Assembly (NCBI GenBank): GCA_964016885.1
Contig: OZ024740.1
Location: 143,530,001 to 143,594,000 of the forward strand
Direction of reading: 5' to 3'
Length of the DNA: 64,000 nucleotides
Source of the DNA: Eledone cirrhosa
Lineage: Eukaryota
This document shows, piece after piece, positions 1-64,000 of this stretch. Both the position numbers and the translations under genes were made by a program. The notes under the pieces were generated by a model. The model was not told where the DNA came from. It searched no databases and was given only the letters and a program-made list of their open reading frames with translations. Positions within the stretch are counted from its first letter, which is position 1; each line of letters opens with the position of its first letter.

Positions 1-1940
1 CAGGGGAACACACCAGTCAGATAGATTATATCCTTACTAGAAGACGTGACAGAGTGTCTGTTGTAAATACTAAATCCCTCCCCCGTGAAGAATGCACCTC
101 CCAACACTGCCTCATAGTTAGCAACCTCATACCCAAAACTAGACATACTCGACAACAGAGGAGAAGAATATGAAAGTTGAAGGACCCCACAGCCTGTAAC
201 AAATTTAAAAGTATATTACTTGATGCTTTTGACAGTAAGAAAGAGCAATTAGAGACGTACAGCATCTGGAATGGTGGGACACACTATGGTCACCTGGATA
301 GTAAACCAAGTAATACAGAATGGAATCATACCAAATGACTGGCGTAGCAGCATCATCATTAACTGCTACAAGGGTAAAGGAGATGCTCTAGATAGGGGAA
401 ATTATAGAGGCATTAAGTTAGTTGACCAGGTCATGAAGGTCACAGAAAGAGTTATAGTGCAACTAATCACAGAGCGAATTGATCTAGATGAAATGCAGTT
501 TGGGTTTGTGTCAGGTAAAAGTACCACATACTCTTTTCCTTGTATGGCAACTACAGGAGAAGTACCTAGATAAAAGTAAACCCCTCTACTTAGCTTTTAT
601 TGACTTGGAGAAAGCCTTTGACAGAGTCTCCCCACCCCCCTCCATTATCTGGTGGACTCTTAGAAAACTTGGTGTAGATGAATGGCTTGTGATAGCTATA
701 CAAGCCATGTATAGAGGAACAGTCAGCAACGTTAGAATTAACAATAAATATAGTGAAGAATTTAGCATCAAAGTTGGTGTTCATCAAGGCTCTGTCTTTA
801 GCCCCCTCTTATTTATTATTGCCCTTCAAGCTATAACAGAGGAGTTCAAGACCGGCTGCCCGTGGGAACTTCTATACGCAGATGATCTAACTCTCATAGC
901 TGAATCGATGGCTGAACTAGAGAAGAAATTCCAAACATGGAAGCATGGCCTAGAATCAAAAGGCCTTAAAGTTAACTTGTCTAAGACTAAAGTTCTAGTA
1001 TGTAGAAAGGAAAATAGGGCACAGGTGCCCTCTGGGAAATGGCCATGCTCAGTGTGTAGGAAAGGAGAAGGCAGAAATTTCAAATGTCAGAAATTTCAGA
1101 AATTTCAAATGTCCCAAATGCAAACTATGGGTACATAAAAGATGTAGTGGGATCACAGGTAAACTATCTAAGAAGGTAGATTTTATATGTGGTCGATGCT
1201 CAGGTTCAATAAGTAGCAAGTGCCCACAGGATACTAGCTCCTTCTATTGCCCAGATGGTTCTATAGAAATTGTGGACACTTTCCGTTGCCTGGGTGACAA
1301 AATCAGCAGTGGTGGAGGGTGCTCTGAAAGTACAGTAGCCAGAGTCAGAACGGGATGGAAAAAGTTCAGAGAGCTTATACCATTATTGGCCACTAAAGGT
1401 TTCTCTCTAAAAATGAAAGGTAGATTGTAAGATGCCTGTATACAAACAGCAATGTCTAATAGTAATATACGCGAATGGCAAAAGATAAATGAACTGGACC
1501 GAGATCTTTGTGCATAGTGAAACCTTCAGTCAGTAGGCACCGCTTAACCAACACCTTGCCTATGTGCATAGTGAAACCTACAGTCAGTAGGCACCGCTTA
1601 ACCAAATATACACCCCATCCTACTACCCCCGACTCCACCCTCCCACTCCTGCCAACACTACCCTTTCTCTGTAAAGTTATGTTGGTACCACAACATCCAC
1701 TCCAAAATAAATGAGGTTGTGTAGGTGTCATGATAAAAAAACACAGTCCACGCTGTAATGTGGCCGTGTAGGTAACACAGTAAAAAACTCCCAGTCCACA
1801 CTGTAAATGTGGTTGGTGTTAGGAAGGGCATCCAGCCGTAGCAAACCTGCCAGCCAGTCCTATACGAGCAAGACATGGTCACCCGACCGTCTAAACCCAT
1901 GCTAGCGTGGAAGATAGACGTTAAACAATGATGATGATGA
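1..1940 (+). mobile_element. RTE-clade LINE, 3' part, decayed (RT, internal PHD-like finger, 3' UTR, (GAT)n tail)
   Basis: NYRGIKL, FIDLEKAFD, GVHQGSV and YADD RT motifs; WPCSVCRKG cysteine cluster; ends gacgttaaacaatgatgatgat. Frameshifts and internal deletions. Confidence 0.93.
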
Positions 1941-2334
1941 CATTTCTTGTATTCAAAGACAAACAGAAGAGTAAAGACTTCTGGTTATGAACATCAGAAA
2001 GAGTAAAGAACTTGGAGAAATTAATGGATGTTCATTGATTTCATCTGTCCAGTAAAATCGACTGCAATAATATACAAACTGTGTAAAATATAAACTTCAG
2101 GTATCAACATTTACATATGACTCATTTTTATTTGAGTATTGACAATAAATCATCATCATCATTTAATGTCTATGTTCCATGCTAACATGGGTTAGACGAG
2201 TTGTCCCATTTGAAGCAAGTCAGGTAAGATGTTACAGTGTTTCTCTCATTGATAATTCGACAATCACAAAAATAATGTTTAAAAAAATCTTGTATTTTGA
2301 ACTAAAATATTTTGCTTTTTCATTTTTTCAGATA

Positions 2335-2374
2335 ATGAAGATTTTACCACTACTCTATTTGCTGGCAATGACTT
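2335..2374 (+). CDS. Coding exon 1: first half of signal peptide (MKILPLLYLLAMT)
   Basis: Polypyrimidine acceptor ttttttcag ending at 2331, ATG at 2335, donor T|gtaagt (phase 1). The acceptor implies an upstream non-coding exon. Confidence 0.85.
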
Positions 2375-5300
2375 GTAAGTGATTTATCACCATCACCATC
2401 AACATCATCATCACCGTTTTACATCTGCTTTTCTATGCTTGCATGGGTTGGAAGTGTCTTTTCTAGCACAACCTCCTTCTACTCATTGTGGTACTTCGTC
2501 ATCTCTGGTACCTTCAGCAATTTCAGATGAGCACTCAAAACCTCTGCCCTGATCTGCCTTGGACGCTTAATGCAGCTTTCTTCCACTGGCATTTGTGCAT
2601 CCAAACGGAAGACGGGTAAATTCGTATATTCGGCCACAGGCTTCGAATGCAGTCAACTTAAAGTCGGAAGATTTGATGGGTATTTGGTGATAAGCTGCCT
2701 TTAGATCTATTTTCGAGAAATATTTGTGTTTTGAAATTTTGTTGAGTAGGTCTTCGATTATGGCATTAGTGGTGTGTAACGATTTATAGTGCCTGAGTAG
2801 TCTATGACAAGCCTTTTTTTGTTTTCTTGATCTATTACGAAACACTGCGCTCTCCATGGGCTTCTGCTCTGTTGAATTATTCCAGCTTTAAGCATTCTGT
2901 CGATTTCCGTTTTAATGAATTGCTGATCTTTATTGTATTTTCGAGGAGGTATAGATAATGGTTTTAATTTTGTAGTATCGATTCCAGGCATTAAATCATA
3001 TTCTTCACAATTCAGAGTTTGCATTGACATACATGTCGTGACTGCTCTCATGTCCCCTGCATATTTTATTGTTAAAGACTTATGCCTTTTAAGTATATCA
3101 AGAGCCATAACTACTGGAGCAAAGAGTTTGTCAACCACCATTAGATCGATGTGGTATTCTCGGCCCTCCCATTCTAATGTTGTTTCAAATGTACCTCGTA
3201 TTATGAGTTTACTGTTGTCGGCTAAAATTACACTCTTATTCTTAGTTTTCTTGAATTTACTTTGCCATTTCGACAAGTGGTTCATGTCAATGAAAGACTT
3301 GTCTGAGCCTGTGTCAAGTAAACCTTCTGTTTTATGTGAATTGACATAAATTGTTAAAAAGTTTGTATTATGATTCACGGAAGCAAGTTTATAGCAGGCA
3401 GCAATATTACTGCCATCATTGGAGCCCTCGTTATTATTCAAGACTGCTGCGTGTTTTATCTTCTTTAGTACCTTCTTATTTTTAACAAAACATACTGTTG
3501 CCCAGTGGCCTTTCTTGTGGCAGAAATTGCAAGTTGAATTTTTTGCAGGGCACTCTGATTTTTGGTGATATGTACTACCACACCAGAAACATTTTAATGA
3601 AGAAGCAGCGAATACGGGTTGTGACGGCGGTTGTATTGTTGTTGTTGACAGATTTTGTGCGTCTTCTATTGCCAGTTCTAATGTGAGAGCGGTTTGGAAT
3701 GTTTTATCTAGATTTTTGAAACTCCTACCTGTATCTTGAATACATCACTAAACTCATTACCTGCTCTCATTTTACTGACAGCACCTTTGTACATAGCTTG
3801 CATGGCTCTCATAACCCACTCATCTACACCCAGCTTCCTTAAGGACCACCAGATAACAGATCAATGTATAATTCTCTCTACAAGTATTAAATGTGTTATT
3901 ATTCTAACAAAAGTAGAAATCCAGTTTTTCTTATCTGTAATTCAGCAACAAGCCTTTTAAGACCATTTTCCTTGCTATATTAAGGGTTATCCCTTCATGG
4001 CATCCTTTTTGAGGCAATATTTTACAGCCACATTCCCTTCCTGTTGAAACCTCTTTTAGTCACCTCTTACAACACACATGGTTATGTAAAATCTGAAAAT
4101 ATATTTTCATCTTTTATAGATATATCAATGGTCAATGCACAGCTTAACATTGAAGCAAATGGTAATTGTATTATAAAAATCTTTGATTTTAAAACCAGAT
4201 GCTATCTTTTCTACTCTGCTTTCTGCTTCTTTCTCATAGTTAATAATCTTTAGTCACTAAATATATTTCCTCCTTTGAATGGGCAAAATTTCATCTTCAG
4301 AGCCCAAAAGACAATAATGATTATAAATATGATTGTGATTATAATATTGATTGTAGTAATACAAACTGTTATCTTAAAATATCAATTTGACAAAACTGTA
4401 GAAAGTAACTAAAGACTATTTAGTAAAAACAAATGTATATATATATATATATCAGCAGCAGCAGCAGCACTTAACATCTATTTTCCCTACTTTTGAGGAT
4501 TGAATAGGTCATTATAGAATAAGTCAGTACTTAATTGAAGCCAATAGCCTCTCAACAAGTCAGGTATCACATCTCACTTACATACATTCCTGAAATGTAC
4601 ATGTTGTAACAGATGCATTTTATCATGGCACCAGCTCTAGAGGGGTTTTTGTACCCTTGATAAAACTGAAGAGGCTTCACAACTCTTTGTTGGCCCAGTT
4701 TTCTATGACTGAATACCCTTCCTATCACCAACCACCTTATAGAATGTACTGGCTGGTTTTCTCATGTTGCCAACACTAGAGAGGTTATCATGCCCTTAAC
4801 ACAACTGAAGCGTCCTCTTGACCCTTTTTTGGTGTGGTTTTTCCAGCTGGACACCTCTCCTATCACTAACCACCTTACAAAGTGTACTGACTGCATCTTT
4901 TGTGGCACCAGCACTAGGGCAGTAGTCACGGTGTAGTCCTACAGATGGAAGCTCTTCCTAACACTAACCACTTTGATGGGGGAGGTAAGAAGGATGATGT
5001 ATATATGTGCACACACATACATATTACATATATGAATACATATTCAGAATTCTGTACATTTTTGGAGACACTTGTGATCTGTACATAAGTTGGTATAACA
5101 TGTGAGTAATGTAGCATGTCATCAGGGTCATGGTCCTTGAAAGACTTTCAGTTGTCTCCAATGGTAACATGACGCAAGATGATTAAAACTTAAGGATCTG
5201 CTGCAATATCTTCCGTCTTCTTCGTCATTATGTGAGTTAATTTAACACCTGCTTTATCACTATTGAAGATTGAAGACAATGAAACGCATTTAGTCTGAAT

Positions 5301-7998
5301 CCTCACCCTCAACTTTGCAATCTTTAAAGACCCTACTAGGAGGACAAACCTTCTGATGACATCACTGTCAAGGTCTGATGAACATGCAAGCTTCTCCACC
5401 ACATCATAGTAGATCTCTCATTCAATTTCTCATTAGTTCTGATAATCTTTATTATATATTTTTACTTTTAATTTCCATTATAAATATATCAAAGCTGATA
5501 AAAACTTAAACTTAAATCAATAAATTTAATATATCTATTTCAGGAACAATTTGGTTAGGGGAAGAAATAACTCTTAAAACTCCAATCAGTGCTAATACTG
5601 CGGCTATTACATGGAAAAGTGAAGGAAAGAATATTGCATGTGACAAAAGTTGCGGTGGGAATGAAGACTACAAAATTACTAGGGGAAATGGTTTATCTAC
5701 CCTTTGGATAAGAAATGTTTCTTGGCAATATCGTACATGGACAGTTATTGAAAATGATTTGGAAACTAATGACTTCACTATGGATATAAATGGTAAGGAA
5801 ATAATTTCTGATGATAATAATCATGGAGCAAGTATTTTATGGTGTTAAATCAAAGTCAACATTTGTATTTTAATGATTTATTTTCTATCTTGAATTGTAA
5901 TATTTCTGTAATATATAATAATGTGGGATAGTTAACTAAATGAACTGGTTAGATTAACCCCTATGTCCTTGTTCTAATATCTTGACCACATTTCCAATAA
6001 TTAGGTGTCTATATTACCACTTAATTGTTATATGGTTGACAATCTTTCGGTATCTTCTAATATCTTAATCACATTCCCAGTGGTCACTTATCTAATGTTA
6101 GGGGGTTATAAACCCCTATAAAATAAGCTAATTTGTCAGACTGCCATATTTGTGTTAAAAATGTTTGTTTTTTGAAATTCAGATGTTATGTTGATTTTAT
6201 TTATTTTTTTTTTTTATATAGAATTTTAAATAATAACATTCTTATTCCTTTTCTATCTCTAAGAATGATTCCACATTCCTTAGTACAGATGTATTGGAAG
6301 GTTTTATCTCTGAATGGTTTAGAAATCATATAAACACAAATTTAGCAGTATGTCTTATTTTATATAGTTGTCACAGAATTTTGAATCTCATAACTTGTTT
6401 GGTTTTAATATTGCAGTGAACTTTGTATATTTTCTGTTAGCCATGTGATGTTATAGACTATTTCCAACTCTCCTTATTTTCTGATAACTTTTTCTTGGAG
6501 TTGAAAACTGTGAAAACAACCACACATTAAGAAGACCCGCTTAACATTTGCAGAGATAGGAGAAATCAATCTAAATATACCTACAGACTAACAAAGAACA
6601 GTCTGTCTGAGGAACAATTTGTCCTCTATATATGATTATATACACTTACAGACTGATGAGGATTCTTTGTTACTAAAATATACATAAACCAACTTTATAC
6701 TGATATTATTCTTGTTTTTTTTCTTTCCTTTTTTCAATTCTTGAAATGACAAAGAAATTGGTCTTATTTTTCATTGATCAGAACCTTTTTCCAAATTCTC
6801 ACTGCAAACAAATCTATTGTAACCAAATCTTGACAATACAGTGTGGGAATAAAGAATCTGTAAATTAAAAAAATAGCTTGTGGTAGCAATAATAATAAAG
6901 GCTTACCTTGCTTCCAGAATTCACTTAGAGGAATTTTTAATAGCAGCTCTTTCATGCTAAACAGCTTAAAACACCACACTTTTCTGTGAGTCTCACACTC
7001 ACATACACACGCAACCATACTTTGAAAAAAATTCTATGTTGAAAGAGGATTGGAGTTCTGTTCCTTCACTAACCTGGCACTATTTCCCTCTCATACTTCT
7101 GGCTCTTAACCCACAATACTACATACATTTTAAAAGACGGTATCATAGAAGCAACTAATTCATTATCGCTGGCAGGGCCTATGAGAGGGGGTCCAACTAG
7201 TACTTTGTTCCGGGGGCCCAAGACCTAAGAAGGCCCCACAGCAACCATGCAACATCCATTTTGAGAATTTGCCTGCTTCAGAGCAAAATTTCTCCTGGAA
7301 GCCCTGATCGCAGGCACAGTTTTTTTCTTTGGCAATTTCAGTATTGAAAAGTCTTCTAGTAGATGTTTCTCAAATGAGATGGAGGTGGGTGCAAATATTC
7401 TAAAATGCTGCTATTCGCACCAGAAATCAACATTCTCTGTTAACTGTTCTCTCTCATTTTCTGCATCATCATCATTGAACAGCCATTCTCCCTGGTAGCA
7501 AGTGTTGGACAGGTTATTACAGAATGAGTCAGTGCTCAAGTAGAGCTACTGACCTCTCAGATGGGTCAGAGGCCCACATTGTGCTTACATATATTTCCAT
7601 ACTCTATAGAGTGCACTTTATTGTGGCGCCAACATTAGAAAGGTTGTCATGACTTTGACACTGCTGAAGAAGCCTCTCAACCCTTTATTTGACCAGTTTT
7701 CTATGACTGAATACCTTTCCTATCACCAACCACCTTGCAAAATGTACTGAGTTTGTTTAATTAAGTCACCAACACTAGAGAGGTTGTACCTTTGACGTAA
7801 CGGAAGAATTCTTTTGACTCTTTTTAACACGGTTTCTATGACAGGATTCTCTTCCTATTGCCAACCAAGTCACAGGTTGTACTGGGCGCATTTTTTGTAG
7901 CACCAACATTAAGGAGGTTATTGGTAATTGAGTTAACTGAAGATCCCTCTCTACTCTATGGGAGGGGATGTTAAAAAGGATGGTAAGTATAATGCATG

Positions 7999-8029: not shown

Positions 8030-11000
8030 TTGTATGTATAATATGTACACATGATATATTTTGCAGTGAAGCCAACGATTCATTTTGAAATCAAACCAAA
8101 TTGTGACTACAAAATAAAAACGACTTGTTCTAAACCCAAGGCAGATATAAAATGTCTCTACGGTGTAAGTAAATGGAATTGGGTTTTTACCTGTTTCTCT
8201 TCCTATCATTAACCTATTCAATTATGTGCTAGGGAGTGGATTGCTTAATTTTATTTAAGGTAACTGGAGTGAGTAGGGTGTATCTTGCTTAGAGACACAA
8301 CACAATTACTCTAGTACAGTATTTGTAATTCTAAGTCGGGACATATCAGTTCAAAATGAGATTAACAAAAAAAGATTTGACTATGGTATTTTAAGAAATG
8401 AACTGAGCATCAAATAACATTGTGACATTTACAATGTGGAACTTGCTTGATTAAAAGTTTTTTATCAGTCCAGTAATGAAGCAAAAGAATCATCATCCAT
8501 CATATGTAATATTTTCCAGTATTTTCATGTGTAAGTACAACAGTGGCACTGATCCATGATCATAACAATCTATGAGCTGACTGAGAGCAATGTTAGACAC
8601 TTTTGTCTATGTTGATCAATGTTCACTTGATGCCTAAAAAAACACATTTTTGAAGCTGTGCACTCCATCAGATTTTAAAAATGGAATAATTCCATAGAAA
8701 ATGAGATTTACAATTGTGATTCATAAAGAGCGGGTTTTCCATTTTGTTTACAATATCATATAAGACATGGGAGGACTTTCGGGTTAAGTTAGAACCTGAC
8801 ATTTGATCAGTAAATGAAATATTTTGGCAAACTATCTCCTGACTTCATTATAAGAAGTCCTCCTCTACACCTGCTTTCAAGAACTTGTCTGGGGTTCTTG
8901 TTTCTGAAGAGAGGTGCATCCTCATAAGCTAGAGAGAGTACTTTGCTGATCCTGGGTCACAATAGTTAATGTACATGAGTAGTGTCTAACCTTGCGAAGG
9001 CTGTGGTCACCAGAGCAATTAAAGTGCTCAAATGTGGCAAGGCCGCTGAGGAAGATGAAATTGGGCCTGAGGTTTAAAACCTTAAATAGAAAAGGTATGT
9101 TCTGGCTGACTCATGTGTTAGGTGGCCTGAATCTCTGTGAAGGCACCAAAGCACTAGCAGCAGGGAGTGATACAATTTTAGAAGAAGTGAGATTGCTCTA
9201 ATTATTTGTTGTTAACACAATATAAACTATAATAAAGTAAGAAGCGCGGGATTGCTTAGTAAAATAAGTTGGTTTACTTTGAATAAATAATGAATGAATG
9301 TTACATAATTTATCTACTAAATTTCGTGGCTGTTCATTAAATATATTTTATTATTTATTTAAAGATTCGCTTCTTTAAAATTTTCAAATGTAAACACTTC
9401 CGATCGCTTAAATAAATACTCATATATTTCCTTCACTAATTTTCTCCTAATGCAGTTTATATATAGTATCGTCTTTTTTAATGTATCATGGATTACATTA
9501 CTGATTAAATAAGACAGTGTAACACAGTCTTCGTTCAATTTCTGTGTATATTGTCAATTACGATTTTATTTGATGTATCATATCTACATGCATATATACT
9601 TGCGTAAAATATCAATATACACACTAAACATACTAGCAGAAAACCACCCGAAGGGTGGTTTTTCTGCTAGTTTATTTAATGAATATGATTTACAGAATAA
9701 ACAAATCAATAGAAATTAATTAGAGAAAGAAAAAACAAAAAAACAAGAGAAGATGGGTACACTCAATTGCATGCTACAACAGGGAATGTTCGTATTTCCC
9801 TAAAACATTTTGAGGTAATCAAGACACTCATGACATTGCTGCTGGAATAGCCAAGCACTCTTATGAGCATCACCTGATACTTCAGTAAGATGAGCTGCCA
9901 ACAATGACAAGAACCTTATTGTCAGCAACCCTGCTACCACCAAATATTTTGAATGCTTCAGGCTGAAACATGGATTACCAATAATTCACTGTATTTCAGA
10001 ATTTTATTTCGTTTGGCTATGGTTGCAGTGACCCCCATTTTTTCTGCAGCATCTAATATATGAGGAGCAAAAGCATCACTGACTGTGGTGCCCCATAAGA
10101 CGCATCTACTTTTAGCCTGAGGGCAAAGAGTAAGACGAATGAGCCTCTTTCCATTAACCCTGGACAATCCATTTCTAACAGAATTTGGAATTTCAAAATA
10201 TTTTCCACTTACTATAGCTAATCTTCCAGCTCTAATCATATCATCTAGATAGAAAAATATATTTACTATTATCGATGGGGGATGGGGCTGGAGTGTTGTA
10301 ACACTTTTCTGCTTGTTCGAGTTTAGGGTGGGGGGAGGTAGTGGATTAGCTAACCTGCTTCTGCTGCATGCATTCCACTTGCATGAGAGGCGAGTTCTTC
10401 ATATTACAGAATTTTTCTCAGTCCTGGATCATCTCCTTTATGGGATTTAACTGCATGAGGTCGGCCTTTATGACACCATCTCATCACAGAATTTCCTAGG
10501 TCTTCCTCTTCCAAGGGTTCCTTTGACTTCAGGAGCCCTACATTTCTTTATGCAGCTGTCATCCTTCATACATATTACATGTTCATACTATCGCAATTTC
10601 TTCTCATGAACACTACACATGATGCCTCTTATGCCCAGCTTTACTCTTAGCTCATTGATATTTCATCGCTCTTATATATTACTATTATACATTCATCGGA
10701 GCATGCTCATCTCATTTCTTTCCAATCTTTGTAAGTCCTCCATACACAAAGCCAAAGTCTAACTACAATGTAGCATTGCTGTTCGTACACAAGCAGCATA
10801 CAGTCTGCCATTCACTCTGAGGCAGAAACTTTTTGTAGCTAGCAGTGACAGTAGCTCCCTGACTTAACTTTTTCCAACCAGTCCTTATTCTGGCTACTGT
10901 ACTTTCAGAACACCCATTCCCACTACGAATTTGATCCTCTAGATAGCAGAAACTATTGACTATTTCTAGGAAGCCCTCTGAACATTTAATAGGGCGTTTC

Positions 11001-14000
11001 ATGTGTGCTCTTGTTACTTACTGCTTCTGTGCATTGGTTACATACAAAGCCTACATTTTTAACCTGGTGTAAAACCAAACTGCATCTTGTCTATGTTAAT
11101 TCTATCCTGAATTAGTTGTGCAATAACTATTTCAGTAACTTTCATGACTTGGTTCATCAACTTGATGCCTCTTTAGTTTCCTCTGTCTAGTGTGTCTCCT
11201 TTGCCCTTGATGCTGCTATGCCAGTCATTAGGTATGACACCATCCTGTATTACTTGATTTACTATGCACATAGTGTGTGCCCCACTCAACCAGATACTTT
11301 TGGCATCTGAGCTACTATCCCTGATGGCCCAGCTGCTTTACTTGTCTTCATATCCTTCATTGCCTTACTTACTACACAGTTGCTAACTTGGCTGACCAGA
11401 CCCTCTGTTGAATCTGCTTGAGGCAGGCCTTCTTTCTTCTCAGCAACAATGAGGGCAAGTCAACCACTGTCATTTTGGACACAATTCTCCCCAACAACAT
11501 CTTGATTTTTCCCTCACATCTTGCAATCCTGAACACCTCATGCCTATGGTCCCCACAGTGCAGAACATGCACACATTTCTTGTTTTCTGCTTTCCTCCTT
11601 CCTAAGTATACCTGTCACTTGGCTTCTCTTCTACCATCTTGATACTGTTCTCTGCTTCCCCCATTTTGCCAATCTTTCCATGTCTGTTTCTTAATTCTAA
11701 CTGTCTCATCTACTCTTCTATTCCACCACCATGTCACTCTATGGCATCCAGGGGCCTTGTTTTGAAGTATATGGGGACAGGGAAGGTTCTGTGGTATGAG
11801 TTAATTGGGTTTGGTGCCTGGGATGTAGTGAATTTGCATGGCATTTCAGTCATATTTCTGAACATGGTGTGGTACTTCAGCCCCTTTTCTAAAATGATCT
11901 ACCTCATTTATATCGCTTATCCAGATTGATCAGACAGAAAACTGTTGGTGGTGGAAAGGGGATGGAAGAGAGGTTTCTGATGAGGTTTAGGGAAGAGGAG
12001 GAGAATAGAATTTAGGAAAAGAAAGATGGCAAACATGGCTAAAATAGAACAGGACAAGAGAGATCTGAAGAAGTAAATTTTAGGGAAGAAAGATGAGATA
12101 GATTGAAAACAGCAAGCAAAAATAAAATGAAATATTTATGAACAATACAAGAGAGAGAGTGAGAAATGAATTGTAGGGAAGGAAGAAAAATGAGAAATAT
12201 ATAATGTATATGGCAGAATTTGCAGAAAAGAGGAGAATAGGATTTAGGAAAAGAGAGATAGCAAACATCACTAAAAATAGAATATTCATAAGATATAAGC
12301 TTTAAGGAAGAAAGATGAGATAAGAAGAAAATATATACTGTATATACTCAAATATAAGCCACCACCACCCCTATTTTATGTCTGAGAAATGAGCAAAAAT
12401 CCAACTGATCAACACATGTTTAGATAGAATGGTTTTGAAATTCTCGTGATTATAAAATATAGTTACAAAGTTTTAATATTTTGATGTTTAAAATATAGTT
12501 TTTGTTTCACACCTCCATTGGGTAATGAGTTTCCATTACGCTAAGTTTCAACAAGTTTCTCAAATGTTTGTTTACTTCTGGCCACTCACATGCTACAAGT
12601 ACTTTGAAAGCAAGAAATCAACTAAGAAAGCATTGTATTAGAATAGAAGAAGGAGGGGGTGACAGCAAGTGAGAGATGGCAATAAAATAATATTAGAAGA
12701 AAGATTTCAATTTTACAGAACATTGAAAGAAAAAGTATTATTAAGTCAGAGAAAAACATGTATGTGTGTGCACATGTGCATATGTAATTCTGTATAAGAT
12801 ATTTATGTATTAAAAAATTTAAATTATAAAACTTTGTTGGAAATATTTTCATGGGAATGCATAAAAAACACTAATGATGATGTAAATGAAGCAAAACAGT
12901 TTCATTGTAAAATAATCACTCCATATATTTTAACACCTTATTTCTGGTGAAAATCAGCAAAATATAAGCTGACACCCATTTTACCATTGATTCTTTTTGT
13001 CACATATTTATTAGCTTATATTCAAGTATATATGGTATATGTGACTGTGTTTGAAGGAAAAGGTGAGGGCTTACAAGAATTAGTCACATAGTGTTATGTA
13101 TATGCGGATGAAGTACAGAGGATATTATATGTAATATATTCTTGATTTGTGTAATGTTTATATTTTGGTTTAATGAAATTAAGCTATATCGTCAAGCACT
13201 TATTTCAGAATATTTGCAAGCTCTTTTAGTAATGGGGAATGAACTTTGACACGGGATTGGGGATCAAGTTTCATGTGACAAGGCCTAGTTTCAAAACGGG
13301 ATTTATATCATGTTGGTATCCTCTATATAGAAATATGTATAATGAGTGTTCTACCACATTCAGACTATAATCACTGTACTATGTCCAGCTCCACCACTTG
13401 TTCTGTTACCAATATAACAGAACTTATCAATAATATAGAAGATATCATTGTAAGCCTTGCATGTGTCATAGTTGAAATTATGGTAACTTTCCAGATTGTC
13501 TCAATAATGTTATACCTTATGACTGTTTTAACAAGCTAAGTAACTTAAATAGAAATAAATTAAGTATTAAATGTAATAAAGTAAAAGTTTAGTCCTTGAA
13601 AATTAGTTACTGGGGAAAAATCATTTGAGCCAGTCAAAATCTCACAAAAACTTTGAAATTCACTTTTATCATTTATTTATTGTTGTCAAACTTTTCCTTG
13701 CATTGATTATGACCAAGTTACTGACACAGTTTCACTGATAAATATAAAATGAATTTAAGTTTCTTAAGTCTCAACACAAGCTCAATCAAGTCACATACCA
13801 ACCAAGTACAACTCTGAAATTAATAATGATTTCTTTAAATATTCTTTTTTATTTTACTTTCTTTCTCAGAAAGATCTGAAACTTACACACGAATCTGAAC
13901 CTTGTAATAATCGAAGTATTAAATTAAACCCTCCTGGTGTAAATTTAATGCAGCAATCAACTACACCTGGGAAAATCAAATGTGATGTCCAACTTGATAG

Positions 14001-14659
14001 TCTTTTACACTTTACTGTAAATAAAGAATTTGAATGTAAGGGCATGATTTTATCATTTTTATAAATAATATTGGAAATTGTTTTCAAATGTTCTTTGTTT
14101 AGATATATTCACTTCTTAGAATCTGCTCCCACCATCACTGTACTCCCCCAATTCCACCCCTTCCACTCATCACCCTGTCAAACCCCAGCACACCTATCTT
14201 ATACCCATAACATATTCTCTTCACCTTTTTACTTCCTCACATCACCACTTGAAGCCAGGCATGGAACCTGTCACTCTCCACCTCTTGTCACCTATGATAT
14301 ACCTAATATCCTTTTTACATCCTTCATCGTCTCTCCCCAAATAAGTTGAGTGATTGCATAAATGCTGCATCATTGGCTCTAAAGGACTGTAGCATTACTT
14401 CTTCACATGAAGGTAACTTAGACAAACTATAACCACTTGATTTCTTGCAGCTATTAAATAAATAACAATATATTGGCTTTCTTTTGCAGGCACTAGCTCT
14501 TCAGTGAAGCCTCTTACTACAATGACAGAGGATATTACTACAATGACACCTTTTACAATATCGTCTATTTCAGGTAATAGTGCAAAATCCTGCATTTCCA
14601 GAATTTGGATGGAACTTATTATTGGGATCATCATTACTGTTATCTGTTTAAGATATTAA
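2335..14659 (+). CDS. Spliced host gene (6 coding exons, 254 aa): predicted GPI-anchored cell-surface protein with two atypical Ig-like domains
   Basis: Manual exon assembly; 40+42+249+98+166+170=765 nt, intron phases 1,1,1,0,1, all GT-AG, no internal stop. MKILPLLYLLAMTYISMVNAQLNIEANGTIWLGEEITLKTPISANTAAITWKSEGKNIACDKSCGGNEDYKITRGNGLSTLWIRNVSWQYRTWTVIENDLETNDFTMDINVKPTIHFEIKPNCDYKIKTTCSKPKADIKCLYGKDLKLTHESEPCNNRSIKLNPPGVNLMQQSTTPGKIKCDVQLDSLLHFTVNKEFECTSSSVKPLTTMTEDITTMTPFTISSISGNSAKSCISRIWMELIIGIIITVICLRY*. Confidence 0.85.
2567..3720 (-). mobile_element. Ty3/Gypsy LTR-retrotransposon pol fragment (protease and N-terminal RT) in intron 1
   Basis: LLDTGS aspartic protease motif; SPWRAQ, RLVIDY, IDLKAAYHQI and RLPFG RT motifs. 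Frameshifted here by a ~13-nt deletion relative to copy B. Confidence 0.9.
4120..4161 (+). CDS. Coding exon 2 (42 nt): end of signal peptide and mature N-terminus (YISMVNA^QLNIEAN)
   Basis: Acceptor cttttatag, donor G|gtaatt, phase 1-1. It is required, because splicing exon 1 directly to exon 3 would create T+GA = stop. Confidence 0.82.
4480..4970 (-). repeat. Degenerate tandem copies (~120-130 bp) resembling the RTE/SINE 3' UTR core
   Basis: Repeated ggcaccagc..ctagag / cccttcctatcac..accaccttac..gtactg units; a paralogous block lies at ~7470-7950. Confidence 0.55.
5544..5792 (+). CDS. Coding exon 3: atypical V-type Ig-like domain
   Basis: 249-nt open phase 1-1 exon (tttcag|...|gtaagg). 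Pattern G-x-x-I-T-L, ITW (C-strand Trp) and STLxIxNV (E strand), plus CDKSC. Confidence 0.88.
7470..7950 (-). repeat. Second block of degenerate RTE/SINE-tail tandem repeats (paralog of 4480-4970)
   Basis: Shares ccagttttctatgactgaatacc.ttcctatcac.aaccacctt with 4695-4740. Confidence 0.55.
8067..8164 (+). CDS. Coding exon 4: N-half of second Ig-like domain (VKPTIHFE...TTCSKPKADIKCLYG)
   Basis: Acceptor ttttgcag, donor |gtaagt. Phase 1 in and phase 0 out, matching exons 3 and 5. Confidence 0.85.
9632..9671. other. 18-bp stem hairpin with CTAG-containing ends
   Basis: actagcagaaaaccaccc-gaa-gggtggtttttctgctagt, with one bulged T. Confidence 0.85.
9800..10200 (-). mobile_element. CRE-clade non-LTR element, decayed C-terminal endonuclease region
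   Basis: LWGTTVSDAFAPHILDAA...KILKYSEL is homologous to the CRE copy at 28507-28860. Confidence 0.7.
10380..11700 (-). mobile_element. RTE LINE, heavily decayed
   Basis: SFCYLEDQIRSGNGCSESTVARIRTGWKK and HEVFRIAR fragments, same family as 1-1940. Confidence 0.8.
12336..13037. mobile_element. Non-autonomous pogo/Tigger-type DNA transposon (MITE-like)
   Basis: Terminal inverted repeats tactgtatatactcaaatataagc / gcttatattcaagtatatatggta, with TA at the ends. Confidence 0.75.
13870..14035 (+). CDS. Coding exon 5: C-half of second Ig-like domain (KDLKL...KIKCDVQL...KEFE)
   Basis: Very long polypyrimidine tract ending ttctcag; open phase-0 frame; donor T|gtaagg. Confidence 0.87.
14490..14659 (+). 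CDS. Coding exon 6: Ser/Thr stalk and GPI-anchor-type signal, stop TAA
   Basis: Acceptor cttttgcag; CTSSSVKPLTTMTEDITTMTPFTISSISGNSAKSCISRIWMELIIGIIITVICLRY*. Small-residue cluster (SGNSA), spacer, then a terminal hydrophobic stretch with no cytoplasmic tail. Confidence 0.8.
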
Positions 14660-15079
14660 AAATTAATAGAAAGAGATAGTATGTATTATCCACTATTTTT
14701 TTGCATGAATTTGATGGGTTTTCACATTTTTTGCATTTTTACTTTCAACTTGCTCCAACAATTTGAGATCAACTCTCACCACTTCAGTCAAAGTCTTCCT
14801 TAGTCTTCTCTTCCACATCTTTCTTCCTTGGATTCTCTTAGTTCTTCTTGACCCAACGATCATTATGCATCAGCATCACATGTCCTTACCAGTGCAATCT
14901 TCTCTCTTGCACATTTGATTCAACTTATGCCCAGTTTTTCACTCAATTCATTTGTGCTTCATCATTCATGCATACTAACATTACACATTCTTAAAGAGCA
15001 TGTTTGATTTGTTTCTCTGCAATCTTCACACATTCTCTGTATTCACTGCCCATGTCTTACTACAATGCTGTATCACACT

Positions 15080-15950
15080 TAAGAGACGTGCAACCAAGCA
15101 AATACCCTCCATCAGGCATCTACCATACTCTGAATGCCTTGCTTCCCTGGGCATGGATACATTGAAGCTCCGACGTCTGGCAATTGACTTGGTAAACACC
15201 CACAAAATTATTAACCATCTGAGCACCTTTTTGATTTCCTTTTTGTCTAACACACATGGGCATGCCTACAAAGTCAGAAAACAGCACAGCTCCCATGACT
15301 TTCGGAAAAATTTTTTCATGCTCAGAGTTGCTGAAGCATGGAACAAACTCTGCATCAGTTGTTAGCTGCCGAGACACAACATGCTTTAAAACCTCCATGC
15401 TTCCTGAAATTTGCCAACACTATACTTGATATCCATCCTCCATACACATGCACACATATATATCATGACTCATACACTGTTCACTTTCCTGGCATTTGTA
15501 CATCATTCTATGTACTATAAATGCACCTTTGATGAATCGTAGTGCACCTGAGCACTGTACACAATAAATTCATTATTATTATATATATATAATGAAATTA
15601 TTGTGTGAAGTGCTCAGGTGCACTACAACTCGTCAAAGGTGCATGTATAGTACATAGAATAATACACAAATGTCAGCAAAGTGAATAGTGTATGAGTCAT
15701 GATATACATGTGTGTATGTGTATGGAGGGGGAACATTAGGTGTAGTGTTGGCGAATCTCGGGAAGCATGGAGGCCTTAAAGGATGCAGTGTCTCGACAGC
15801 TAACAACCGATGCAGGTAGTTTGTTCCATGCTTCAGCAACTCTGAGCGTGAAAAAATGTTTTCGAAAGTCATGGGAACTGTACAGTTTTCTGACTTTGTG
15901 GGCATGTCCACGTGTGTTAGACACATGGAAATCAAAAAGGTACTCAGGGT
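15080..15950. mobile_element. Two CR1-type LINE 3' fragments, tail to tail (15080-15580 +; 15592-15950 -)
   Basis: Both encode NTRGHxxK...FFTLRVAEAWNKLP, the typical CR1 ORF2 end. Their 3' UTRs face each other across a (TA)n spacer. Confidence 0.88.
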
Positions 15951-17750: not shown

Positions 17751-17939
17751 TCATTTTGTTATTCATTTTTGTTAATTTCAGGTCACTGCAAAGACATAAG
17801 GAATGCTTTTTAAGACATAAGGAATGCTTTTTAAGACTTTTTAAATAACTGTGTTTTAATTACTCTCAATTCTTGAATAATCTGGTATGGGTGTCCCGTT
17901 TACTTGTTCCAGCCATCCGGCTGAGGCGACCGCAGATTA

Positions 17940-28222: not shown

Positions 28223-28249
28223 ATTAATACTTCATAGTTGCACAAACAA

Positions 28250-33925: not shown

Positions 33926-33927
33926 GT

Positions 33928-48400: not shown

Positions 48401-48470
48401 GAACGCGGTGGAACACTATGATTGCCTCATGTGTCGCAAGACGCGGGAGCTTCTGAGTCAGAGTCTGAGA
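45420..48470 (+). mobile_element. Near full-length, young RTE-clade LINE (APE-RT), a different family from the others
   Basis: WNIRTM, LGLSEVRW, GDMNAQIG, NWRGVTLL, FIDFSKAFD, GVRQGCSLSP, FADD, YGSETW and RGRPK. Only one stop (~45800) and two frameshifts (~46140, ~47850) seen; short tgagtc-type repeat tail. Confidence 0.95.
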
Positions 48471-48699
48471 GAGAGAGAGAGAGGGGGATGATTGCGACGC
48501 AAACGAGTAAGTAATCCAATTCGTTTAACTCTTTTGGCTATATAAAACTAAATATATACATACGTAAACATGTCTTATGTCCGTATTTCTTGCAGTAATG
48601 TTGACTTTCGTGCCTCTTGTAACAAGTGAACGGTTTACTTGTGTTGAATCGTATTTTCTTTCGTTTTCATTTTATATTTTTATATCCTGGATATATTTT

Positions 48700-57642: not shown

Positions 57643-60508
57643 TGACAATGTCAAAGATAAAGATAAATTCACCTCCTGTTGTCGGGCGAGAATGCAAGAA
57701 CTCCTCTTTATTTCAGGCACGGATGGCCAAAATAATCCCATCTCCCACACCCCTTCCTGTGCCTCCAACCTATCCCTTCCACCCACCCAACGAAATCCAA
57801 AACTTCAGAGTTGGTACCATGAATGTAGGCACTTTGAAAGTTTGCTCTAACGAGGTTGTAGAGATGCTTGAACGTAAGGAAGTTGATGTTTGTTGTGTTC
57901 AAGGACTAGATTCATTGTGGGTAAAAAACGATGCTATAAACTTTTCTGGGTGGGGTGGGGTGGTGTAGGAATTATGTTAGCAGAAAAATGGGTAGATAAG
58001 GTAATTGCCATAAATAGAGTGAACGATAGAATAATTAAAATAAGACTAGTTCTAAATAGAAGTACTGTGACAATAATATCTGCTTATGCATCCCAATCTG
58101 GCCTACCTGACGTTATAAAAGACAGATTCTATGAGTCGCTAATGCTCACTACCTCCCAAATAACCGACAGTGACTACATAATTATTGGTGGTGACCTTAA
58201 TGGTCATGTTGGACAACATTGTGACGGTTATGACGGGATCCATGGAGGCTATGGGTTTGGTACTAGAAATGAGGACGGCTTCAGAATCCTGGAATTCTGT
58301 GACGCTAATAACCTAACTATCTGTAACACAAACTTCAAAAAATGAGACAATCACTTGATCACTTATAGATCAGGGGAACACACCAGTCAGATAGATTATA
58401 TCCTTACTAGAAGACGTGACAGAGTGTCTGTTGTAAATACTAAATCCCTCCCCCGTGAAGAATGCACCTCCCAACACTGCCTCATAGTTAGCAACCTCAT
58501 ACCCAAGACTAGACATACTCGACAACAGAGGAGAAGAATATGGAAGTTGAAGGACCCCACAGCCTGTAACAAATTTAAAAGTATATTACTTGATGCTTTT
58601 GACAGTAAGAAAGAGCAATTAGAGACGTACAGCATCTGGAATGGTGGGACACACTATGGTCACCTGGATAGTAAACCAAGTAATACAGAATGGAATCATA
58701 CCAAATGACTGGCGTAGCAGCATCATCATTAACTGCTACAAGGGTAAAGGAGATGCTCTAGATAGGGGAAATTATAGAGGCATTAAGTTAGTTGACCAGG
58801 TCATGAAGGTCACAGAAAGAGTTATAGTGCAACTAATCAGAGAGCGAATTGATCTAGATGAAATGCAGTTTGGGTTTGTGTCAGGTAAAAGTACCACACA
58901 CTCTTTTCATTGTACGACAACTACAGGAGAAGTACCTAGATAAAAGTAAACCCCTCTACTTAGCTTTTATTGACTTGGAGAAAGCCTTTGACAGAGTCTC
59001 CCCACCCCCCTTCATTATCTGGTGGACTCTTAGAAAACTTGGTGTTGATGAATGGCTTGTGATAGCTATACAAGCCATGTATAGAGGAACAGTCAGCAAG
59101 GTTAGAATTAACAATAAATATAGTGAAGAATTTAGCATCAAAGTTGGTGTTCATCAAGGCTCTGTCCTTAGCCCCCTCTTATTTATTATTGCCCTTCAAG
59201 CTATAACAGAGGAGTTCAAGACCGGCTGCCCATGGGAACTTCTATATGCAGATGATCTAACTCTCATAGCTGAATCGATGGCTGAACTAGAGAAGAAATT
59301 CCAAACATGAAAGCATGGCCTAGAATCAAAAGGCCTTAAAGTTAACTTGTCTAAGACTAAAGTTCTAGTATGTAGAAAGGAAAATAGGGCACAGGTGCCC
59401 TCTGGGAAATGGCCATGCTCAGTGTGTAGGAAAGGAGAAGGCAGAAATTCCATTTTATGTCCCAAATGCAAACTATGGGTACATAAAAGATGTAGTGGGA
59501 TCACAGGTAAATTATCTAAGAACGTAGATTTTATATGTGGTCGATGCTCAGGTTCAATAAGTAGCAAGTGCCCACAGGATACTAGCTCCTTCTATTGCCC
59601 AGATGGTTCTATAGAAATAGTGGACACTTTCCGTTGCCTGGGTGACAAAATCAGCAGTGGTGGAGGGTGCTCTGAAAGTACAGTAGCCAGAGTCAGAACG
59701 GGATGGAAAAAGTTCAGAGAGCTTATACCATTATTGGCCACTAAAGGTTTCTCTCTAAAAATGAAAGGTAGATTGTAAGATGCCTGTATACAAACAGCAA
59801 TGTCTAATAGTAATATACGCGAATGGCAAAAGATAAATGAACTAAGTGAGAAATTAGGAATAAGAGGGATCAGATGCTGTTTACTTCAGAGAAGACTATG
59901 TTGGTATGGTCACGTGATGCACATGAAAGACGACAGCTGTATAAAAAAGTGCAGGGCGATCAAAATTGATGGAAGTTACAGAGTAGGTAGACCCAGAAAA
60001 ACCTGGGATGATTTGATAAATTCCGACCTTACACACTTACACCTCTCTAAGACAATGTTACTGGACCGAGATCTTTGTGCATAGTGAAACCTTCAGTCAG
60101 TAGGCACCGCTTAACCAACGCCTTGCCTATGTGCATAGTGAAACCTACAGTCAGTAGGCACCGCTTAACCAAATATACACCCCATCCTACTACCCCCGAC
60201 TCCACCCTCCCACTCCCGCCAACACCACCCTTTCCCTGTAAAGTTATGTTGGTACCACAACATCCACTCCAAAATAAATGAGGTTGTGTAGGTCTCATGA
60301 TAAAAAAACACAGTCCACGCTGTAAGGTGGCCGTGTAGGTAACACAGTAAAAAGCTCCCAGTCCACACTGTAAATGTGGTTGGTGTTAGGAAGGGCATCC
60401 AGCCGTAGCAAACCTGCCAGCCAGTCCTATACGAGCAAGACACGGTCACCCGACCGTCTAAACCCATGCTAGCGTGGAAGATAGACATTAAACAATGATG
60501 ATGATGAC
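57643..60508 (+). mobile_element. RTE LINE with both ends and internal deletions (duplicate of the element ending at 1940)
   Basis: Same 5' start as 40832; APE, RT (YADD), PHD-like Cys/His cluster and (GAT)n tail. Confidence 0.95.
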
Positions 60509-60903
60509 ATTTCTTGTATTCAAAGACAAACAGAAGAGTAAAGACTTCTGGTTATGAATATCAGAAAGAGTAAAGAACTTAGAGAAATTAATGGATGTTC
60601 ATTGATTTCATCTGTCCAGTAAAATCGGCTGCAATAATATACAAACGGTGTAAAATATAAACTTCAGGTATCAACATTTACATATGACTCATTTTTATTT
60701 GAGTATTGACAATAAATCATCATCATCATTTAATGTCTATTTTCCATGCTAACATGGGTTAGACGAGTTGTCCCATTTGAAGCAAGTCAGGTAAGATGTT
60801 ACAGTGTTTCTCTCATTGATAATTCGACAATCACAAAAATAATGTTTAAAAAAAAATCTTGTATTTTGAACTAAAATATTTTGCTTTTTCATTTTTTCAG
60901 ATA

Positions 60904-60943
60904 ATGAAGATTCTACCACTACTCTATTTGCTGGCAATGACTT
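60904..60943 (+). CDS. Paralog B coding exon 1 (MKILPLLYLLAMT)
   Basis: Same splice sites as 2335-2374; one synonymous change TTA>CTA. Confidence 0.83.
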
Positions 60944-61135
60944 GTAAGTGATTTATCACCATCACCATCAACATCATCATCACCGTTTTACATCTGCTTT
61001 TCTATGCTTGCATGGGTTGGAAGTGTCTTTTCTAGCACAACCTCCTTCTACTCATTGTGGTACTTCGTCATCTCTGGTACCTTCAGCAATTTCAGATGAG
61101 CACTCAAAACCTCTGCCCTGATCTGCCTTGGACGC

Positions 61136-62300
61136 TTAATGCAGCTTTCTTCCACTGGCATTTGTGCATCCAAACGGAAGACGGGTAAATTCGTATATTC
61201 GGCCACAGGCTTCGAATGCAGTCAACTTAAAGTCGGAAGATTTGATGGGTATTTGGTGATAAGCTGCCTTTAGATCTATTTTCGAGAAATACGTGTGTTT
61301 TGAAATTTTGTTGAGTAGGTCTTCGATTATGGCTTTAGGGTATGAATCTAATGGTGTGTAACGATTTATAGTGCCTGAGTAGTCTATGACAAGCCTTTTT
61401 TTGTTTTCTTGATCTATTACGAAACACTGCGCTCTCCATGGGCTTCTGCTCTGTTGAATTATTCCAGCTTTAAGCATTCTGTCGATTTCCGTTTTAATGA
61501 ATTGCTGATCTTTATTGTATTTTCGAGGAGGTATAGATAATGGTTTTAATTTTGTAGTATCGATTCCAGGCATTAAATCATATTCTTCACAATTCAGAGT
61601 TTGCATTGACATACATATCGTGACTGCTCTCATGTCCCCTGCATATTTTATTGTTAAAGACTTATGCCTTTTAAGTATATCAAGAGCCATAACTACTGGA
61701 GCAAAGAGTTTGTCAACCACCATTAGATCGATGTGGTATTCTCGGCCCTCCCATTCTAATGTTGTTTCAAATGTACCTCGTATTATGAGTTTACTGTTGT
61801 CGGCTAAAATTACACTCTTATTCTTAGTTTTCTTGAATTTACTTTGCCATTTCGACAAGTGGTTCATGTCAATGAAAGACTTGTCTGAGCCTGTGTCAAG
61901 TAAACCTTCTGTTTTATGTGAATTGACATAAATTGTTAAAAAGTTTGTATTATGATTCACGGAAGCAAGTTTATAGCAGGCAGCAAGATTACTGCCATCA
62001 TTGGAGCCCTCGTTATTATTCAAGACTGCTGCGTGTTTTATCTTCTTTACTACCTTCTTATTTTTAACAAAACATACTGTTGCCCAGTGGCCTTTCTTGT
62101 GGCAGAAATTGCAAGTTGAATTTTTTGCAGGGCACTCTGATTTTTGGTGATATGTACCACCACACCAGAAACATTTTAATGAAGAAGCAGCGAATACGGG
62201 TTGTGACGGCGGTTGTATTGTTGTTGTTGACAGATTTTGTGCGTCTTCTATTGCCAGTTCTAATGTGAGAGCAGTTTGGAATGTTTTATCTAGATTTTTG
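61136..62300 (-). mobile_element. Ty3/Gypsy pol fragment, copy B (protease-RT frame uninterrupted)
   Basis: ORF 61136-62023: LLDTGS...IDLKAAYHQI...RLPFG. Confidence 0.9.
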
Positions 62301-62701
62301 AAACTCCTACCTGTATCTTGAATACATCACTAAACTCATTACCTGCTCTCATTTTACTGACAGCACCTTTGTACATAGCTTGCATGGCTCTCATGACCCA
62401 CTCATCTACACCCAGCTTCCTTAAGGACCACCAGATAACAGATCAATGTATAATTCTCTCTACAAGTATTAAATGTGTTATTATTCTAACAAAAGTAGAA
62501 ATCCAGTTTTTCTTATCTGTAATTCAGCAACAAGCCTTTTAAGACCATTTTCCTTGCTATATTAAGGGTTATCCCTTCATGGCATCCTTTTTGAGGCAAT
62601 ATTTTACAGCCACATTCCCTTCCTGTTGAAACCTCTTTTAGTCACCTCTTACAACACACATGGTTATGTAAAATCTGAAAATATATTTTCATCTTTTATA
62701 G

Positions 62702-62743
62702 ATATATCAATGGTCAATGCAAAGCTTAACATTGAAGCAAATG
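62702..62743 (+). CDS. Paralog B coding exon 2 (YISMVNA^KLNIEAN)
   Basis: Same splice sites as 4120-4161; CAG>AAG (Q>K) at the predicted mature N-terminal residue. Confidence 0.8.
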
Positions 62744-64000
62744 GTAATTGTATTATAAAAATCTTTGATTTTAAAACCAGATGCTATCTTTTCTACTCTG
62801 CTTTCTGCTTCTTTCTCATAGTTAATAATCTTTAGTCACTAAATATATTTCCTCCTTTGAATGGGCAAAATTTCATCTTCAGAGCCCAAAAGACAATAAT
62901 GATTATAAATATGATTGTGATTATAATATTGATTGTAGTAATACAAACTGTTATCTTAAAATATCAATTTGACAAAACTGTAGAAAGTAACTAAAGACTA
63001 TTTAGTAAAAACAAATGTATATATATATATATATATCAGCAGCAGCAGCAGCACTTAACATCTATTTTCCCTACTTTTGAGGATTGAATAGGTCGTTATA
63101 GAATAAGTCAGTACTTAATTGAAGCCAATAGCCTCTCAACAAGTCAGGTATCACATCTCACTTACATACATTCCTGAAATGTACATGTTGTAACAGATGC
63201 ATTTTATCATGGCACCAGCTCTAGAGGGGTTTTTGTACCCTTGATAAAACTGAAGAGGCTTCACAACTCTTTGTTGGCCCAGTTTTCTATGACTGAATAC
63301 CCTTCCTATCACCAACCACCTTATAGAATGTACTGGCTGGTTTTCTCATGTTGCCAACACTAGAGAGGTTTTCATGCCCTTAACACAACTGAAGCGTCCT
63401 CTTGACCCTTTTTTGGTGTGGTTTTTCCAGCTGGACGCCTCTCCTATCACTAACCACCTTACAAAGTGTACTGACTGCATCTTTTGTGGCACCAGCACTA
63501 GGGCAGTAGTCACGGTGTAGTCCTACAGATGGAAGCTCTTCCTAACACTAACCACTTTGATGGGGGAGGTATGAAGGATGATGTATATATGTGCACACAC
63601 ATACATATTACATATATGAATACATGTTCAGAATTCTGTACATTTTTGGAGACACTTGTGATCTGTACATAAGTTGGTATAACATGTGAGTAATGTAGCA
63701 TGTCATCAGGGTCATGGTCCTTGAAAGACTTTCAGTTGTCTCCAATGGTAACATGACACAAGATGATTAAAACTTAAGGATCTGCTGCAATATCTTCCGT
63801 CTTCTTCGTCATTATGTGAGTTAATTTAACACCTGCTTTATCACTATTGAAGATTGAAGACAATGAAACGCATTTAGTCTGAATCCTCACCCTCAACTTT
63901 GCAATCTTTAAAGACCCTACTAGGAGGACAAACCTTCTGATGACATCACTGTCAAGGTCTGATGAACATGCAAGCTTCTCCACCACATCATAGTAGATCT

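Follow-up and report, generated by a model that had tools for sequence, protein, structure and literature searches.

A 64,000-nucleotide stretch of the genome of the octopod Eledone cirrhosa (assembly GCA_964016885.1, contig OZ024740.1, hereafter C1, positions 143,530,001–143,594,000, "the window") holds the coding part of one copy, and the beginning of another, of a gene whose predicted protein contains two immunoglobulin (Ig) domains. Here, we describe a tandem array of nine intact copies of this gene, as well as four intact intronless copies (retrogenes) on a second chromosome (C2). The reading that we favor, at slightly better than even odds (about 0.52), is that both sets encode a predicted two-Ig protein, likely glycosylphosphatidylinositol (GPI)-anchored, whose outer domains are evolving faster than neutral, likely because parasites or microbes bind them. 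Little is known of the molecular means by which cephalopods recognize parasites, microbes, or mates and, within the literature that we searched, a variable Ig family is apparently undescribed for them. Two independent amplification routes leading to the same diversifying ectodomain would provide an unusually clean internal replicate of selection.

The gene array on C1 and its retrogenes on C2

The initial annotation of the window had reported that its first 5.4 kb recur at its end, in a tandem duplication possibly belonging to a longer array of paralogs. Both proposals hold. By self-BLAST, positions 1–1495 match 58,371–59,843 at 97.3% identity (19 mismatches and 22 gap columns) and 1493–5416 match 60,060–64,000 at 98.8% (31 mismatches and 17 gap columns), with an offset of 58,370–58,584 between the copies. 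When the 3.0-Gb genome was searched with the first Ig exon, nine copies at 98–100% identity were found at C1 143.31–143.76 Mb, with a spacing of 47.9–61.1 kb, together with six further C2 loci at 68–76%. The array spans approximately C1:143,293,800–143,796,800 (about 503 kb) in units of 47–62 kb, which we number U1 to U9 in order; the window covers most of unit 5 and the beginning of unit 6. The comparisons below draw on 520 kb surrounding the window and on 80 kb from C2, and there is no gap letter (N) within the 584 kb examined.

The gene model combines splice-site conservation, retrocopies, and contigs of run X4, which we take to be RNA because only this run shows GT..AG joints. Among the joints listed, these are 4160>5543, 5791>8066, 14035>14490, and 14678>17782, with a loose end from 8164 to 13,870, whereas the joint between exons 2 and 3 is known from retrocopies. 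The features of the two copies in the window, all on the + strand, are as follows (UTR, untranslated region; SINE, short interspersed nuclear element):

1..5416, +, piece of array unit 5 (copy A) recurring one unit downstream (self-BLAST)
2332..2374, +, copy A exon 2, with the ATG at 2335 and the beginning of the signal peptide (AG/GT ends in 9/9 units; joined to the next exon in retrocopies)
4120..4161, +, copy A exon 3, 42 nt, last part of the signal peptide and start of domain 1 (X4 joint 4160>5543)
5544..5792, +, copy A exon 4 ("exon 3" of the initial annotation), V-like Ig domain 1 (X4 joints; fold model of a paralog)
8067..8164, +, copy A exon 5, beginning of C-like Ig domain 2 (X4 joint 5791>8066, loose end at 13,870)
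13870..14035, +, copy A exon 6, remainder of domain 2 (X4 contigs; AG/GT ends)
14490..14678, +, copy A exon 7, Ser/Thr stalk and predicted GPI signal, stop at 14,657–14,659 (X4 joints 14035>14490 and 14678>17782)
14679..15570, +, start of the last intron, which the C2 retrogenes retain as far as an AATAAA borne by a SINE (probable alternative 3' end)
17782..18100, +, copy A exon 8, 3' UTR, with a tentative end (X4 joint; in 9/9 units)
48490..48506, +, copy B exon 1, 17 nt, non-coding, with a GTAAGT donor (predicted from retrocopy 5' ends)
58371..64000, +, counterpart piece in unit 6 (copy B) (self-BLAST)
60901..60943, +, copy B exon 2 (AG/GT ends)
62702..62743, +, copy B exon 3 (exon 4 is next, at 64,128, beyond the window)

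The Ig gene of the initial annotation is thus present, but its model had missed the 42-nt coding exon and the 17-nt first exon. Its prediction that the Ig exon of copy B would start near 64128 was accurate, since this exon (exon 4 of the full model) lies at C1:143,594,128, i.e., window position 64,128. The exon 1 motif occurs once per unit in 9/9 units, 12–15 kb upstream of the coding part, and it is also found upstream of the ATG exon in the four retrogenes, with a similar motif in one pseudogene. In all nine copies the six coding exons have AG/GT ends, and the open frame is 254 amino acids (aa) long in seven copies and 261 aa and 268 aa in the other two, the greater lengths owing to extra copies of a 7-residue stalk repeat. 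This Thr-rich repeat (window 14,517–14,558), which alters the length of the stalk, has one extra copy in U9 and two in U4. The nine proteins are 94–100% identical and form about four protein classes. X4 contigs hold variants of at least two copy classes (13,937–13,953, depth 352 of 1178). That unit 9 is the main expressed copy was considered and rejected: these contigs have the three private residues of U9 at positions 56–59 but the base of another class at 2344, and they are therefore mosaics or come from another individual.

Are there nine copies, or have two haplotypes of a 4–5-unit array been concatenated by the assembly? The unit order does resemble a-b-c-d followed by a'-b'-a''-c'-d': outside exons, U1 and U5 differ by 0.06%, U7 differs from both by 0.13–0.17%, U2/U6 by 0.17%, U4/U9 by 0.22%, and U3/U8 by 0.31%, while the remaining pairs differ by 0.37–0.59%. 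This pattern is compatible with either block duplication or two joined haplotypes. Contig depth fits nine copies. Seven contigs of run X1 that cover non-repeat sequence in the unit have a depth of 40–69 which, divided by their k-mer multiplicity in the nine assembled copies, gives 6.1–8.0 per copy; a stretch found in 6/9 units has a depth of 40. Nine copies per haploid genome predict about 7 per copy, whereas 4.5 copies would need about 14. In X1, depth per copy is 4.7–6.5 in a single-copy flank (where the next best match is 76%) and about 8 from retrogene pieces of two-fold multiplicity, which have a depth of 15.3–16.5; flank depth in the sister runs X2 and X3 is 9.1–10.5. Moreover, the 4.45-kb junction upstream of U5 is distinct in sequence, with 22–27 substitutions from each of its four full-length counterparts, and the assembly has no gaps over the array. 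All depth pieces agree with nine copies per haploid genome, and the array is real; we regard a concatenation artefact as very unlikely. The initial annotation had envisaged that the duplication might be undone by half read depth over both copies with no long reads across the junction, or by a copy B lacking exons 3–6. Contig depth fits nine copies instead, and all the later coding exons of copy B are intact.

The four retrogenes lie at C2:173,850,267–173,873,601, in 7.5-kb tandem units that are 95–98% alike. The five coding introns are absent in 4/4, and the frames of 241–251 aa are about 50% identical to the C1 protein. They start with the exon 1 motif and extend into the last intron for about 0.9 kb, as far as a SINE carrying AATAAA (the 3' flank matches 14,554–15,499 at 87.6%), and they are therefore likely to derive from an mRNA ending there. 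Whole-frame changes among the four show an amino-acid:silent ratio of 68:4. In structure and in selection on the frame, the C2 copies look like functional retrogenes. X4 contigs cover little of retrogene 1, which in a single run does not show silence. There are also two intronless pseudogenes with stops, at C2:357.996 Mb and C2:72.29 Mb. The latter was spliced at the last intron and is therefore a separate retro-insertion, so that there were at least two such events, and probably three. In the pseudogenes (L059:4984–5340; L060:5261–5927, minus strand), domain 1 is closer to each other and to Octopus-type sequence than it is in the living copies, and they may therefore record an older state.

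Variation, exchange, and selection

The initial annotation had suggested that the cluster might be diversifying, and the variation among copies bears this out, being exon-restricted and mostly amino-acid-changing, with omega above 1. Among the nine units, 38/777 exon sites are variable compared to 82/10,605 intron sites, an approximately sixfold difference (Fisher p 3e-16), and in the DNA common to all nine units the counts are 36/710 for exons and 273/24,597 for other sites. The three Ig exons together have 29 variable sites, while the maximum in any non-exon 513-column window is 24. Exon 6 is the most variable exon (12/166 sites). The residue is changed in 26 of the 30 variable codons. Within the Ig domains, amino-acid:silent changes are 29:3 in the array (p 0.015–0.07) and 50:4 among the retrogenes (p 5e-4), with 37:2 for domain 1 alone; these count-based tests need no tree. 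Between the two arrays, the ratio of nonsynonymous to synonymous substitution rates (dN/dS) is 2.3–3.2 in domain 1 and 2.1 in domain 2, while the tail is nearly unchanged.

One-ratio codon models on fixed trees point the same way. For the Ig domains of the 13 intact copies, omega is 2.45 (p 2e-4 versus 1), with 3.71 for domain 1 and 2.18 for domain 2. The array alone gives 3.54 (p 0.04) and the retrogenes alone 3.62 (p 0.009), and omega for the signal peptide and tail is 0.50, which is not different from 1 (p 0.21). The units are mosaics: the four-gamete test detects at least 48 exchange events within a single unit. N-glycan sites vary as well: there are six in U2, U3, U6, and U8 and three in U4, U5, and U7, and the retrogenes gain and lose sites too. 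In a post hoc hand count, 11 of 79 amino-acid changes toggle an N-glycan site, compared to 5.5–8.2% expected (p 0.004–0.06). RNA editing or cDNA-driven mutation as the source of the exon excess was ruled out by eye because there are many transversions and few silent changes.

The predicted protein, its relatives, and known Ig systems

The protein consists of a signal peptide, domain 1 (residues 21–110), domain 2 (111–199), a Ser/Thr stalk of 27–41 aa, and a hydrophobic tail. Domain 1 contains Trp51 and only two cysteines, Cys60 and Cys64, plus Cys66 in two retrogenes; the latter, as a third cysteine, may be unpaired. On inspection of the cysteines, the canonical B–F disulfide is absent from domain 1. 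Likewise, known atypical V domains lack it (PMC9546547). Domain 2 has six cysteines, and all eight shared cysteines are retained in 13/13 arrayed copies. The tail comprises the small residues S-G-N-S-A followed by a short spacer and a hydrophobic stretch, and in 13/13 intact copies the stop comes two residues past this stretch. Judged by eye, these features match a GPI signal, and we predict a lipid (GPI-type) anchor, or else a tail-less membrane anchor. The "receptor" of the initial annotation is therefore not one in the signaling sense: there is no cytoplasmic tail, as the last coding exon ends at the stop at 14,657–14,659 and 13/13 intact copies stop just past the hydrophobic stretch.

The fold was modeled on retrogene 4, a single-exon natural paralog about 50% identical to the window protein, together with 14 relatives. 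The AlphaFold model shows two beta-sandwich domains, with a mean predicted local distance difference test (pLDDT) score of 74.8, and 75–93 per block across most of residues 21–199. With both Foldseek and VIA-align, the top rows are V+C ectodomains of the Ig superfamily (IgSF) at 9–18% identity. These include butyrophilin (Z 13.0, root-mean-square deviation [rmsd] 4.4, 176 aligned) and a CD200R-like protein (Z 12.9, rmsd 3.5, 169 aligned), followed by Rst/Neph1 (Z 12.5), nectin-3 (Z 12.3), CD58 (Z 10.9), and CD48 (Z 10.6). The scores are near ties and, for this model, single out no family, while the modeled fold predicts membership in the IgSF. Sequence searches return less: copy A exon 4 has a weak Pfam I-set match (E 0.017), no Pfam match at E ≤ 1 was found for 4/4 retrogene proteins, and the only PDB sequence match is a weak one to CD2 (E 0.19). 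By Atlas features of one homolog, a mollusc-rich Ig-like cluster ranks first, with CEACAM1-named clusters at 0.89.

An exhaustive search found 20 homologs at E ≤ 0.001, of which 18 share the domain pattern, whereas a word-index protein search with one retrogene protein gave no match. The other two, a shrimp repeat protein and a sea-cucumber MAM protein, were set aside as repeat-driven noise. Sixteen of the 18 relatives are octopod-named, one clusters with Sepia, and one is nameless. The named ones are unnamed products of Octopus sinensis, O. bimaculoides, O. vulgaris, and Argonauta, plus one distant Sepia cluster:

O. bimaculoides relatives: LOC106868859, LOC106876057, LOC106876058
O. sinensis relatives: LOC115210431, LOC115232395, LOC115225115
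Argonauta hians relatives: GAB1602944, GAB1602345
Distant Sepia pharaonis cluster: CAE1280570

At 27–36% identity, the octopod relatives share the domain 1 signature (the Trp, a CxxxC pair, and no other cysteine), and those with two domains have the same six-cysteine domain 2, some ending in a short hydrophobic tail. Unlike the copies described here, many of them have transmembrane helices or tails, the latter with tyrosines in some cases, or else carry domain 1 up to four times; longer or fused forms include one 567-aa O. vulgaris protein. The O. sinensis protein LOC115232395 has a transmembrane helix and a tail with repeated tyrosine motifs, and signaling members may therefore exist in other octopods. 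In a FastTree phylogeny of seven of the 13 intact copies and eight homologs, the array and retrogene copies form their own clade (support 0.78; each array 0.997), apart from the octopod relatives, so that both amplifications look lineage-specific. We found no paper describing the family or naming six of the gene ids, although supplementary tables, which the search did not cover, may list these genes; the available part of PMC11999971 makes no mention of octopus, cephalopod, or squid.

Among known systems, the initial annotation had pointed to the Alr genes of Hydractinia. Both are clusters of invertebrate IgSF genes whose V-set domains are atypical and lack the core disulfide (PMC9546547). The analogy fails in architecture, since Alr proteins combine an Fn3-like spacer with a transmembrane helix and a tail that in many of them bears immunoreceptor tyrosine-based activation or inhibition motifs (ITAM/ITIM) (PMC9546547), and the array protein has no Fn3-like spacer, transmembrane-plus-tail, or ITAM/ITIM. 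Moreover, the copies described here arose very recently, are 94–100% identical, and retain the C-strand Trp. Closer in design are the GPI-anchored CEACAM5/6 of primate epithelia, for which selection on the ectodomain and gene conversion have been proposed to evade bacterial adhesins (PMC8860441). Shared features are N-terminal V-like and C-like domains and a GPI anchor, all predicted for the protein described here, as well as clustered paralogs, ectodomain selection, and exchange (PMC8860441). In contrast to CEACAM, domain 2 of the array is as variable as domain 1 and there is a second array of intact retrogenes; no sequence homology is shown, and no ITIM/ITAM-bearing partner was found in this genome. 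CD48/CD58, B7/butyrophilin, and CD200R have the same two-domain V+C fold (Z 10.6–13.0) but at 9–18% identity. CD48 and CD58 are GPI-linked and lack the domain 1 B–F disulfide. On the modeled fold and a GPI signal called by eye, the protein would act as a tail-less V+C protein of CEACAM5/6 or CD48 type within a birth-and-death cluster, a likeness of architecture only, with no family membership implied.

Candidate roles and other features of the units

The mechanism that we propose has five steps. 1) Unequal crossing-over and exchange, traces of which are seen in the units, add and mix 47–62-kb units, which keeps the difference in their non-coding DNA at about 0.5%. 2) Against this background, the Ig-domain exons are seen to differ approximately sixfold more, with nearly all changes altering amino acids and with the signal peptide and tail fixed. 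3) An mRNA ending in the last intron would have been reverse-transcribed into C2, the structure being visible in the retrogenes and the route one that we infer, and the retrocopy would then have been amplified in 7.5-kb units, in which domain 1 is diversifying again. 4) The protein is predicted to be lipid-anchored on the outer face of the membrane, where it could play an adhesion, coat, or decoy role; with no cytoplasmic part, it cannot signal alone. 5) Each copy would present a different surface, partly via gain or loss of N-glycan sites, such that one adhesin could not grip all of them, in the manner proposed for CEACAMs of primate epithelia. A bolder version, which we advance tentatively, is that of a copy-number-variable octopod system of Ig surface recognition, in which a tail-less V+C protein was amplified both as DNA, in nine 55-kb units with two alternative transposon-shaped promoters, and via RNA, as four intact retrogenes, with both sets positively selected and with N-glycan shields switched to escape or trap a coevolving ligand.

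Several points weigh against parasite or microbe binding by a GPI-anchored protein. Positive selection is equally compatible with gamete or self-recognition, and heritable retrocopies imply germline transcripts, which favors a reproductive role. The GPI call was made by eye. Contig depth is a rough measure rather than a copy number, and run X1 is possibly the assembled sample. Among shorter non-exon windows, about 1% match single exons in variability, silent sites of array exons are elevated too (6 of ~170–206), the amino-acid excess is marginal in the array alone (p 0.015–0.07), and codon models are open to bias from exchange among copies. Finally, searches of the genome with DNA and five proteins, which divergent or unassembled members could escape, each returned the same 15 family loci and revealed no tail-bearing paralog among them, and a decoy of the protein's own signaling twin is therefore unsupported in this genome.

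Because retrocopies need germline mRNA, the main rival is gamete recognition or sexual conflict, with a GPI-type Ig protein on sperm or egg and the retrogenes as its germline-expressed daughters. Inheritance of a retrocopy requires mRNA in the germline, as the at least two (probably three) retro-insertions seen here would, and a tail-less architecture with omega above 1, found here, is typical of gamete proteins. Nevertheless, the octopus relatives with transmembrane helices, tails, and repeated domain 1 look more immune- or adhesion-like, and we consider this rival unlikely, if less so than the other two. One of these is a tag of self or cell identity, in which Alr-, nectin-, or SLAM-like binding of like to like in trans would give individuals or cells their identities. 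Nectin, SYG-1/Neph, and CD200R are indeed fold neighbors, and the paralogs are clustered, variable, and mosaic by exchange. The absence of a tail, ITAM/ITIM, or Fn3-like spacer makes such a tag improbable, however, as do the mere four or so protein classes among nine copies that are 94–100% identical, and the biology of octopods which, to our knowledge, are solitary and do not fuse. Equally improbable in our view is dosage amplification or neutral drift in copy number under relaxed constraint, the exon excess being old variants shuffled by conversion. This would suit units that are very young or homogenized (0.06–0.59% non-exon difference) and the elevated silent sites of exons, but not an omega significantly above 1 in each array and between arrays, a conserved signal peptide and tail, or 13/13 arrayed copies that are intact with all eight shared cysteines. 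The 13 intact natural variants, with a conserved anchor and fast outer domains, make ligand, tissue, and glycan effects directly testable.

Regarding the rest of the unit, the initial annotation had counted about 45 kb as transposon debris. Since exon 1 of copy B lies at 48,490–48,506, about 12.4 kb of this is in fact intron 1 of copy B, while the remainder does resemble mobile DNA: Pfam matches were found in 9 of 26 frames scanned, every one to a transposon-type family, and at least 51% of 18,100–58,370 matches repeats elsewhere in the DNA fetched. A second, small host gene may lie within the unit. Directly upstream of exon 1 is a long interspersed nuclear element (LINE):

45400..48489, +, LINE of 3.1 kb that directly precedes exon 1, its broken frames encoding pieces of endonuclease and reverse transcriptase (6/9 units)

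There are thus two candidate promoter types, a sense LINE abutting exon 1 in six units and a foldback element about 110 bp upstream of it in U1, U4, and U9 (exemplified at C1:143,293,660–143,294,440). Intron 2 contains a gag-protease-reverse-transcriptase fragment of a long terminal repeat (LTR) retrotransposon on the minus strand (2758–3744 and 61,136–62,326), with an open frame of 328 aa in copy A and one of 396 aa in copy B; it is present elsewhere in the genome too, with a contig depth about three times that of the array. Every unit has a degenerate tandem repeat of about 200 bp (window 33,925–35,925). At the left edge of the array is a satellite of about 420 bp (C1:143,286,500–143,293,200), the unit of which recurs inside LINE-type units. 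A non-LTR element with a PHD finger and a reverse transcriptase lies on the minus strand at window 28,246–31,035, and each C2 retrogene unit has a relative of it (88%) just upstream of the gene.

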